Virus record (IMG/VR): IMGVR_UViG_3300012209_000005 | Location: 32,001 to 96,000 of that record | Reading direction: 5' to 3' (one strand) | Length of the DNA stretch: 64,000 bases | Source of the DNA: a virus | Shown: in pieces, positions 95 through 34,098 of the stretch | How the letters are laid out: each line of letters starts with the position of its first letter | Position numbering within the stretch: position 1 is the first letter of the stretch | Program-made: the position numbers and the translations under genes | Notes under the pieces: model-generated | Told to the model about the DNA's origin: nothing | Databases searched by the model: none | The model's input: the letters and a program-made list of their open reading frames with translations, nothing else

Positions 95-238
95 ATGATT
101 GCAGCTTTCGCGATCGCCGGCATCGCCCTGGGCATGGCGACGGTCGTCGCAACCCTCCGGTTCGGGTTTCCCGGGCTGCTGGTCATGCTCGCGGTGATAG
201 CGGCGGTAACAGCTGCTATCCTTAGCAGTATCCACTAG
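95..238 (+). CDS. small two-TM membrane protein (47 aa)
   Basis: Hand translation MIAAFAIAGIALGMATVVATLRFGFPGLLVMLAVIAAVTAAILSSIH; stop abuts the tRNA. Confidence 0.5.
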   Translation: MIAAFAIAGIALGMATVVATLRFGFPGLLVMLAVIAAVTAAILSSIH

Positions 239-311
239 GACGCTTAGCTCAGCCGGGGAGAGCGCCTCCCTGACACGGAGGAGGCCGGGGGTTCAAACCC
301 CTCAGCGTCTA
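238..311 (+). tRNA. tRNA-Val(GAC)
   Basis: Acceptor GGACGCT/AGCGTCT, D arm TAGCTCAG..GAGAGC, anticodon arm CCTCC-CTGACAC-GGAGG, T loop TTCAAAC; no encoded CCA. Confidence 0.92.
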
Positions 312-356
312 CGACGAGCGTTAAACCACTGCGGAGACAGCGGAACGCTTGCTCAA

Positions 357-438
357 GGGGATGGATAAGGGTTCGACTAACCTGTAAAACCGCATGTCGG
401 AACAGGTCAGGACAGGCGTTCGATTCGCCTCATCTCCA
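357..438 (+). ncRNA. ssrA: miniature tmRNA, tRNA-like domain only
   Basis: 5' GGGGATG..GGTTCGAC and 3' GGAC-AGGCG-TTCGATT-CGCCT-CATCTCC-A match tmRNA ends; G3:U70 Ala identity pair; short P2 (AACCTGT/ACAGGT) closes a ~16 nt loop in place of the mRNA-like domain. Confidence 0.8.
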
Positions 439-516
439 CTAGTTGTGACGCGAAGCGTCATGACGCTTTAGCCCGGGGTACTGAAAGGCGCTCACCCACC
501 TGATGTCCCCGGTACC

Positions 517-717
517 ATGTACGGGGAGCGTGTGCGCAGGGAACGCAGGATCGACCGCAAGGTTGGCTACGACGAAGCAGCGGTCAAGCGCTTCTTCGAC
601 GCGCTTGACGAGAAGGACAGGAAGAAGCACGCATCACCACGCCGGGTCGCCTGGCGGCGCAAGCTGCGCCAGGAGGCATTCCCGGTCCCGGAGTGGCTGA
701 AAGACAAGCCCTCGTAG
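517..717 (+). CDS. basic hypothetical protein
   Basis: 66-aa ORF filling the gap between RNA genes. Confidence 0.5.
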   Translation: MYGERVRRERRIDRKVGYDEAAVKRFFDALDEKDRKKHASPRRVAWRRKLRQEAFPVPEWLKDKPS

Positions 718-781
718 CTCAAAGGACTAGAGCATCGCGCTACGGACGCGGAGGCTGCAGGTTCGAATCCTGTCGAGGGTG
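708..781 (+). tRNA. tRNA-Arg(ACG)
   Basis: Acceptor GCCCTCG/CGAGGGT; anticodon loop CT-ACG-GA; GGTTCGAATCC. Confidence 0.92.
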
Positions 782-785
782 CGCT

Positions 786-2027: not shown

Positions 2028-2098
2028 CTAAGGTTCGTGTTACTACGAGGTGGATTACAGTGCCATCTGGAAAGTCCGGACAGGAAAATCATGGAAAC

Positions 2099-2662
2099 AT
2101 GTCAGGCAAAACCCGAATCCATGTGAAAACCCGGAATGAGATAAAACGTGAGCGTCGTCTTGTGGATACCCGTAACCATAAATGCTGGGGGTGGATGCCC
2201 GGGGGTATCGTTGTCGCGATGCTCTTTCCTCTTCACGGAGCGAACATAGGGACTCTCCTGAGAACCTGCGAGGCTGCGGGAGCATGCCTCGCGGTACCGC
2301 ACTACCCCTGGGTTCCGCAAGCGCTCAGCAAGGGCTACACGATCTCCCAGCGGGCACCTGTCCACTGGGCTAAGCCGACCTCGATGAGATGGCTGGAGCG
2401 AGAGCGTCAGCGGACAGGCGATGAGTATGTTAACATTATCGGCGTCGAGCTTGCCGATGAAGCGATCCGCCTCCCGAACCTGCCCGTGCGGGGGGAGCGC
2501 AGAACGATCATCGTCCTCGGGCATGAGCAAACAGGGATACCTCCGGAGGCCCTGGAAATGCTCGACATGACAGTTGAAATCCCGATGGTCGGCTCCGGAA
2601 GCACGCTAAACGTAGCGGTCGCAGGATCGCTTGTTCTTTACAAGCTAGCAGGGCTAAGTTGA
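2099..2662 (+). CDS. TrmH/SpoU (SPOUT) RNA 2'-O-methyltransferase
   Basis: NIGTLLRT motif 1, LGHEQTGI motif 2, EIPMVG...LNVAVAGSLVLY motif 3. Confidence 0.9.
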   Translation: MSGKTRIHVKTRNEIKRERRLVDTRNHKCWGWMPGGIVVAMLFPLHGANIGTLLRTCEAAGACLAVPHYPWVPQALSKGYTISQRAPVHWAKPTSMRWLERERQRTGDEYVNIIGVELADEAIRLPNLPVRGERRTIIVLGHEQTGIPPEALEMLDMTVEIPMVGSGSTLNVAVAGSLVLYKLAGLS

Positions 2663-4397: not shown

Positions 4398-4535
4398 ATG
4401 GCGGTCAGCACCTGCAACCAGGTGGGCAGCTGCAGCTGCACATGCGAGGAATGCCGCCCGGCGGGAGGGCGACGGGCCACTCACTGCTGGCAGCATAAGG
4501 GGACCGCGGGCTGCCATTTCGGCTGCCGCAGTTAG
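4398..4535 (+). CDS. Cys/His-rich micro-protein (45 aa)
   Basis: MAVSTCNQVGSCSCTCEEC...HCWQH...CHFGC. Confidence 0.45.
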   Translation: MAVSTCNQVGSCSCTCEECRPAGGRRATHCWQHKGTAGCHFGCRS

Positions 4536-33544: not shown

Positions 33545-33594
33545 GCTGGTTCCCGGTTAAGTGGTAATGCCAGGAACCAGCTTACAGGATTGCA

Positions 33595-34098
33595 TCAGAG
33601 CACGCCGGCGGAAATCGTCAAAGGGGTTGCGGCCGGCGTCACGGTAGCCACCGTGGCACTTGCCGCGTGATCGTAGACAATCGGGGTCCCGGTGGTAACC
33701 ACCGTGTTGCTGGCCACCGACGAGGCAAGCACGTATTCCACGCCCGTGCTATTGCCGACGCGCAGGTACGTGCCGGCGGTCACCGCGGCTGCCACCGTGA
33801 AGCTGGTTGCGCCCGCCGCGACCGCAGCCGCGGTCAGGGTGGTAGTGGCGATAACGCCGCTGACCCCGGAGCAGGCGTACAGGTTGACATTCGCGGTCTG
33901 CAAGTCCACCGGGCGGTTCCCGGGAGCGAGCGGCAGCCCGTTACCCGGGCTGACGCCAGGGCCGCCGATGTAGGCAGTGCTGGATCCCAGGTTAACGAAC
34001 CGGCACGATGCGGCAGCCCCGGGCGTGGGCGTGAACACCAGCAGCGGAGCCGGGGTCGCGACGACATTATTCGGGACGCCAGGGCCAAGGTTGGGCAT
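33595..34098 (-). CDS. beta-rich virion/decoration protein (paralog family, with insertion)
   Basis: NLGSSTAYIGG..V...NGLPLAPG motif. Confidence 0.65.
   Translation of the reverse strand: MPNLGPGVPNNVVATPAPLLVFTPTPGAAASCRFVNLGSSTAYIGGPGVSPGNGLPLAPGNRPVDLQTANVNLYACSGVSGVIATTTLTAAAVAAGATSFTVAAAVTAGTYLRVGNSTGVEYVLASSVASNTVVTTGTPIVYDHAASATVATVTPAATPLTISAGVL

Follow-up and report, generated by a model that had tools for sequence, protein, structure and literature searches.

A tmRNA gene reduced to its tRNA-like domain in a phage tRNA array is a member of a large, mostly unannotated phage family

The stretch analysed here, referred to as the window, comprises 64,000 nucleotides. It corresponds to bases 32001-96000 of an IMG/VR phage contig of 115,415 bp with a CheckV completeness of 93%. 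Judged by its sequence, the element at window positions 357-438 on the + strand is a genuine phage gene for a tmRNA that is reduced to its tRNA-like domain (TLD). One phage TLD-only RNA was known before, that of Mycobacterium phage DS6A, and the window RNA is a relative of it in a large and mostly unannotated phage family. This family probably redirects the ribosome rescue system of the host.

Identification of the TLD-only tmRNA

The Rfam tmRNA model RF00023 matched window positions 357-441 (+) at 57.3 bits (E 7.6e-20), above its gathering score of 47. The alignment spanned model positions 1-374, with 290 internal positions deleted and 2 nt in their place. A second covariance model, R1, was built from 31 other viral sequences, excluding the window element and that of DS6A. 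It matched the element over model positions 1-78 of 78 with 68.8 bits and an E-value of 7e-15, while the three true tRNA-Ala genes of the phage reached at most 29.8 bits. The identity proposed in the initial annotation, a TLD-only tmRNA, is thus borne out by RF00023 and, independently, by R1. Counted through the discriminator A438 the RNA is 82 nt long. The CCA end is not encoded, the bases after A438 being C-U-A. The parts of the element are as follows.

357..438, +, TLD-only (CDS-less) mini-tmRNA (RF00023 57.3 bits; R1 68.8 bits)
357..363, +, 5' strand of the acceptor stem, GGGGAUG, read from the sequence; 7 bp with 431-437; G359 is G3
364..376, +, unpaired D-loop analogue with the GG and UUCGA(C) signature, aligning to the RF00023 consensus
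377..410, +, helix 2 remnant; the RF00023 alignment puts its bases on P2a and P2b
377-384 with 403-410, +, P2a, with one A.C mismatch
385-389 (UAAAA) opposite 401-402 (AA), +, A-rich internal loop
390-392 with 398-400, +, P2b hairpin of 3 bp with the 5-nt loop CAUGU
410..413, +, GGAC motif, the partner of the 5' GAC in tmRNA TLDs; at least 90% conserved in alignment A3
414..430, +, T arm; 5-bp stem 414-418 with 426-430 and 7-nt loop UUCGAUU
431..438, +, 3' strand of the acceptor stem and discriminator A438; U435 is U70

In the RF00023 alignment the element has the 7-bp acceptor stem, the T arm and the stemless D-loop of a tmRNA TLD. Both termini are present, helix 2 is short and closed, and the length of 82 nt falls within the approximately 65-95 nt of the TLD-only class. 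The alanine determinant G3:U70 is formed by G359:U435, A73 is A438, and the D-loop analogue ends in UUCGAC at 372-377. The 5-nt loop of P2b takes the place of PK1, the tag template and PK2-4. Neither PK1-PK4 nor a resume codon, tag reading frame or stop was found in the mini-tmRNA, and no sequence is left to form them. As it has no resume codon or tag reading frame, the mini-tmRNA cannot template a degradation tag. All of the parts listed in the initial annotation (the two termini, G3:U70, the D-loop ending and the T arm, in a molecule with neither tag ORF nor pseudoknots) were therefore found where it had placed them.

A possible mini-tag frame starting from the conserved GCA of the P2b loop (392-394) was rejected, as the frame runs into the T arm, has no stop within the mature RNA and is not itself conserved in the relatives. 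No convincing ORF covers the mini-tmRNA on either strand. The sigma-70 promoter scan gave nothing close to the mini-tmRNA, and the only two terminator-like matches lie on the opposite strand over a tRNA. ARAGORN, also when run with -m, called no tmRNA in the window or in the genome, where it found 8 and 41 tRNAs, respectively; it had been predicted that tRNA finders would miss the element. The minimum free energy fold recovers the acceptor stem, P2 and the T arm with a z-score of -1.78 against shuffled sequences, which is only modestly better. The structural support comes from the covariation in the relatives and not from folding energy.

The TLD-only family in viral genomes

IMG/VR was scanned with two patterns. 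The first described the complete TLD with its two halves 25-55 nt apart and yielded at least 119 loci; the matches listed were all of 68-92 nt and had the same architecture. In the second scan the only acceptor-stem base that was fixed was C66. It likewise yielded at least 119 loci, and a well-formed acceptor stem was found in 113 of the 125 matches listed, the remainder including 3' ends of ordinary tmRNAs (L162, L163, L167 and L168). The Rfam tmRNA model reached its cut-off in 13 of 17 sampled family members. The initial annotation had considered the form to be rare. This does not hold, since viral metagenome contigs commonly contain the same architecture, which is also present, unannotated, in cultured Streptomyces phages.

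A similar pattern was run against 185,579 bacterial and archaeal species genomes, and only two of the 120 matches were TLD-only, almost all others being the 3' ends of normal tmRNAs. The TLD-only form is thus characteristic of phages. The two TLD-only genes in bacterial assemblies (L268:1497-1573, R1 81.6 bits; L287:6053-6131, R1 59.5 bits) are presumably prophage-borne.

The carriers are unrelated phages that span 45-76% GC. No other tRNA was present within the fetched flank for 99 of the first 119 loci. Recurrent contexts, with the element on the coding strand, were terminase-TLD-portal and prohead protease-TLD-capsid (L008, L020, L012 and similar loci). Many small phages had the mini-tmRNA as their sole tRNA-like gene, placed inside the head-morphogenesis operon. 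Large carriers were represented by 44 contigs with a length of 30 kb or more, of which 23 had a completeness of at least 90%. A search for SmpB found no gene in any of these 44 genomes, so any SmpB-dependent action must use the host protein. The integrase search covered these 44 genomes; six of them encoded a tyrosine integrase, and in none of the six did it adjoin the element.

When ARAGORN was run with -m on family members, six TLD-only genes (L015, L020, L060, L086, L117 and L118) were stretched into "tmRNAs" of 324-487 nt with implausible tag peptides; for L020 the stretched call reaches into the ORF region of the neighbouring terminase. All six calls are probably false full-length tmRNAs.

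Conservation and covariation

The MAFFT alignment of all 125 sequences had its 5' ends out of register. Therefore, a length-homogeneous alignment of 31 members (A3) and a model-guided alignment (A4) were used instead. RNAalifold on the 31 length-matched members returned the acceptor stem, P2a and the T arm, with double changes in 13 of 19 pairs. When the four-helix structure was imposed on the 31-member alignment, 96.8% of the cells were paired versus 70.9% in shuffles, and the covariation score was 0.666 versus 0.14 in shuffles and at most 0.137 when the partners were slid. For 100 distinct sequences the corresponding values were 96.3% versus 67.5% paired and a covariation of 0.678 versus 0.136, in an alignment that leans toward the model structure by construction. 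All four helices covary across the family. Compensatory changes were seen in six of the seven pairs of P2a; in the T arm 100% of the cells were paired in the 100 relatives and four of the five pairs covary.

The acceptor stem has a particular pattern. Among the relatives pairs 1-3 and 7 are invariant while pairs 4-6 covary. G1:C72, G2:C71, G3:U70 and A73 were present in 113 of the 113 well-formed members listed, with these bases unconstrained in the scan, while pairs 4, 5 and 6 vary freely among the same members by compensatory change. C74 was kept in 89 of 92 unique members. In alignment A3, TCGAC and the D-loop GG are invariant or nearly so. Together with GGAC, these nearly invariant TLD motifs form the predicted SmpB-contact signature.

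Comparison with known tmRNAs

Standard tmRNA, as represented by RF00023, aligns with the window RNA end to end in the TLD, including its alanine identity and SmpB-contact motifs, and at the base of helix 2. The window RNA differs from it in being without 290 of the 374 model positions, that is PK1, the resume codon, the tag frame and PK2-PK4. With tRNA-Ala it has in common an acceptor stem with G3:U70, A73 and a T arm, but it has neither a D stem nor an anticodon arm.

The initial annotation had named two precedents, and both are real. Mycobacterium phage DS6A is listed as "TLD only" by Hudson, Lau and Williams 2014 (PMC4131195). Nawrocki, Petrov and Williams 2025 (PMC11915505) counted 9 "Standard, no CDS" forms among 97,179 tmRNA sequences, with DS6A as the named phage example, and also cover the mitochondrial forms. 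According to the accounts given in PMC4131195 and PMC11915505, a DS6A-type TLD strongly inhibits the endogenous tmRNA in E. coli (Mao et al. 2009). Mitochondrial tmRNAs without an mRNA-like region were described by Jacob et al. 2004 (PMC1370551), as cited in PMC11915505. Text searches of the literature for mini, truncated or TLD-only tmRNAs in phages retrieved no description of a broad family.

We located the DS6A element at JN698994 28478-28560 (tmRNA Website entry Phage__Mycobacterium.9); it is unannotated in the GenBank record. Like the window RNA, it has the G3:U70 acceptor stem, the UCGAC D-loop end, P2a, the A-rich loop, a short P2b, the T arm, A73 and an unencoded CCA, and the internal run AAAACCGCA is common to both. 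The two have diverged, with 75% column identity including flanks. R1 gives 68.8 bits for the window RNA and 63.9 bits for DS6A, whereas in RF00023 the DS6A element (43.2 bits) falls below the cut-off that the window RNA exceeds. The contexts are also unlike. In DS6A, a 60-kb temperate phage, the RNA is flanked by gp33 and the gene for DNA pol III, whereas the window RNA lies in an array of 41 tRNA genes together with genes for PTH2, a GGQ protein and a SpoU protein.

The tmRNAs of jakobid and other protist mitochondria (RF02544), likened here by description, also have no mRNA-like region and are presumed to work with SmpB without tagging. As a rule their genes are circularly permuted and in two pieces, and they function in an organelle into which SmpB is imported, whereas the window RNA is a one-piece phage gene that would act in a host with a complete tmRNA of its own.

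Megablast and blastn searches of the region and of a 96-nt element sequence against cultured phages gave only tRNA-level matches and no relative of the element. TLD-only genes, both unannotated, were found in the Streptomyces phages LuckySocke (OR725497 17977-18054; R1 92.8 bits) and BRock (KX925554, about 97143-97220; R1 81.9 bits). As in the window, the TLD lies directly downstream of tRNA-Val in a large tRNA array, in phages of 112-115 kb. However, the LuckySocke and BRock TLDs have no BLAST-detectable nucleotide similarity to that of the window, their terminases are unrelated to that of the window phage at the level tested, and neither phage has a gene for PTH2 or RF-1, both of which are present in the window phage. 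The annotation of GiJojo gives a hypothetical protein at this spot.

Genomic neighbourhood in the window phage

The phage has a GC content of about 62-69% and carries 41 co-oriented tRNA genes at genome positions 18.6-35.5 kb, 8 of them inside the window. The mini-tmRNA sits within this array, on the strand of the flanking tRNAs. The following genes of the array are relevant here.

window 238..312, +, tRNA-Val(gac), found by ARAGORN and Rfam; 44 nt upstream of the mini-tmRNA
window 708..782, +, tRNA-Arg(acg), found by ARAGORN and Rfam; next tRNA downstream of the mini-tmRNA
window 2060..2662, +, SpoU/TrmH-family RNA 2'-O-methyltransferase (PF00588, 68.2 bits), directly after tRNA-Tyr
genome 25445-25945, +, PTH2-family (archaeal/eukaryotic-type) peptidyl-tRNA hydrolase (102.4 bits, full profile)
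genome 27574-27942, +, stand-alone GGQ (RF-1 domain) protein of 122 aa (PF00472, 60.9 bits)

All 41 phage tRNA genes have C at position 74 and a base other than C at 75, and none encodes CCA. The A73-C74-U-A end of the mini-tmRNA is of the same design. Because of this tRNA-like C74-nonC end, the mini-tmRNA looks built for tRNA-type 3' maturation and CCA addition. Profile searches of the phage found neither a CCA-adding enzyme of the PF01743 family nor a bacterial Pth (PF01195), and the SmpB gene is absent from this phage as well. The SpoU/TrmH methyltransferase may modify the phage tRNAs or the D-loop of the TLD.

The GGQ gene precedes the start region of the window by 4.4 kb. Its product has an intact GGQ motif and is best placed in the family phrog_3122 (E 4e-28). 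It was rejected as ArfB, the match being 24.8 bits against a cut-off of 100, limited to residues 16-48 and without a basic C-terminal tail; an assignment as PrfH equivalog was likewise rejected. The protein matched 231 phage records, 205 of which were Mycobacterium phages, while PTH2 matched 33 phage records. The best cultured match of PTH2 was in Mycobacterium phage WXIN (45% identity). WXIN also encodes the RF-1 protein and, according to its annotation, a member of the TrmH family, but it has no TLD-only RNA. The best matches of both PTH2 and the GGQ protein are in Mycobacterium phages, and the best-covered matches of the terminase are in Gordonia phages at about 31% identity. Taken from sequence, this suggests a high-GC actinobacterium as the host. 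When the neighbouring 156-aa ORF was used to search IMG/VR, no close relative of the phage was found there.

Two further observations were made in the array. A sub-threshold match to the manA RNA motif (RF01745) at genome 19058-19285 (+), with 47.4 bits against a gathering score of 55.2 and an E-value of 3.8e-9, lies immediately upstream of tRNA-Ala(ggc). At genome 20341-20416 (+), ARAGORN called a tRNA without an assigned identity and with a four-base anticodon (tagg), which could reflect an odd anticodon loop or a frameshift-suppressor-like tRNA.

Discussion

We favour, with a probability of roughly 60%, the explanation that the mini-tmRNA is charged with alanine, binds SmpB and competes with the host tmRNA, so that ribosomes are rescued without ssrA tagging or the tagging pathway is blocked. 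The RNA would be co-transcribed with the neighbouring tRNAs and matured by the tRNA-processing enzymes of the host, as suggested by the N73-C74-nonC end that it has in common with the 41 tRNAs. CCA would then be added and alanine charged by the host AlaRS, for which the invariant G1:C72, G2:C71, G3:U70 and A73 argue. The D-loop GG...UCGAC and the GGAC motif, in a phage with no SmpB of its own, point to binding of the host SmpB. The Ala-TLD with SmpB, perhaps joined by EF-Tu, would compete with the host tmRNA for SmpB and for stalled ribosomes, which it would have to enter. In the absence of a resume codon and tag template, rescue would become uncoupled from ssrA tagging. As a consequence, either trans-translation would be blocked, or the nascent chain would gain one alanine and be released untagged by a hydrolase. 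This hydrolase could be ArfB or Pth from the host, and the GGQ protein and PTH2 encoded by the phage itself are further possible candidates. The peptidyl-Ala-TLD might end in a block, be hydrolysed by an enzyme of the ArfB or Pth type, or undergo further rounds of alanine addition.

The main and serious rival to the charged mode is a pure decoy. The RNA would act as an SmpB sponge that titrates the host SmpB away from tmRNA, also destabilising tmRNA, and would neither be charged nor enter the ribosome. The conserved SmpB-contact signature is in agreement with such a role, as is the finding that no carrier encodes its own SmpB, and a sponge explains the sole published phenotype as it is related in PMC4131195, citing Mao et al. 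By that account charging is not needed for the one phenotype tested, so that a simple decoy could suffice. However, a sponge needs none of G3:U70, A73, G1:C72 and G2:C71, which are invariant in all 113 listed members while the neighbouring pairs drift. Nor does it need a tRNA-type 3' end, and yet C74 is retained almost throughout (89/92). The charged form is favoured over the sponge because of this strict alanine identity set beside freely covarying neighbours, although the invariance could partly reflect inheritance or a constraint on processing or stability. We regard the pure sponge as possible, but as a minority option. The initial annotation had put forward two functional options, an SmpB decoy and tag-free rescue. 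These are still the best two explanations, and the weight shifts toward the charged, ribosome-acting form since the alanine identity set does not vary within the family.

In this phage the mini-tmRNA, the GGQ protein and PTH2 together might form a self-contained, tag-free ribosome-rescue pathway. The Ala-TLD with the host SmpB would accept the stalled peptide and a phage hydrolase would free it; in a variant of this scheme, repeated TLD rounds would add short C-terminal alanine tails. If true, ssrA-directed degradation would no longer reach those phage proteins that are translated from mRNAs broken or cut by nucleases. PTH2 was, however, found in none of the 46 other carrier genomes and an RF-1 protein in one of them, and no TLD-only RNA was found in five cultured mycobacteriophages chosen as matches of PTH2 and/or the GGQ protein. 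On these counts (0/46, 1/46 and 0/5) the phage hydrolases were rejected as general obligate partners of the RNA, and the three-component pathway in this phage is itself doubtful.

The element could also be regarded as tRNA-like punctuation, a signal for RNase P and RNase Z to cut polycistronic phage transcripts, with the released RNA having no role of its own. Its position elsewhere between co-oriented genes (terminase and portal, prohead protease and capsid) speaks for this. Yet a minihelix of acceptor stem and T arm suffices for cutting, which leaves the alanine set, the tmRNA-specific D-loop and GGAC unexplained, and in the window the genuine tRNAs on either side already provide cut sites. 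We therefore find it unlikely.

It is slightly harder still to see the RNA as one half of a split tmRNA, with a separate phage tag-template RNA, or the template of the host itself, working together with the TLD. Helix 2 is closed by its own hairpin and offers no free strand for a second piece, and an Rfam search of the whole 115-kb genome found no other tmRNA part. A six-frame search for tags with ALAA-type endings gave only two weak hits (window 4409-4498 and 33578-33670), which were judged to be due to chance.

A function as alanine donor in a non-ribosomal reaction, such as cell-wall or lipid aminoacylation, by an anticodon-less tRNA-Ala that is kept from translation would account for the invariant alanine identity set and the missing anticodon arm. 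It would not account for the tmRNA-specific features, and RF00023 and R1 score far above tRNA-Ala. With no Fem/MurM-type or aminoacyl-lipid synthase gene among the neighbours scanned, we consider it highly improbable.

The ssrA gene is a frequent integration site of phages, which then contain its 3' end, and our scans did pick up some ssrA 3' fragments (the four loci named above). Nevertheless, a non-functional remnant, be it an attP fragment of the host ssrA or a tRNA-Ala or tmRNA pseudogene, is effectively refuted by covariation, as both acceptor halves are present and covary with each other, a tyrosine integrase occurs in only 6 of the 44 large carriers and never next to the element, and the element is conserved across unrelated phages of 45-76% GC; the initial annotation had argued against an attP remnant from the presence of both ends, and here it was right.

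In the literature, TLD-only tmRNAs have the status of curiosities, and annotation based on ARAGORN misses these genes or mis-extends them to false full-length tmRNAs. The unannotated copies in cultured Streptomyces phages make the role of a message-less tmRNA, whether decoy, tag-less rescue or alanine tailing, directly testable. Phages repeatedly carry this stripped-down tmRNA head with its alanine identity under strict selection, which points to deliberate manipulation of host ribosome rescue and not to decay.
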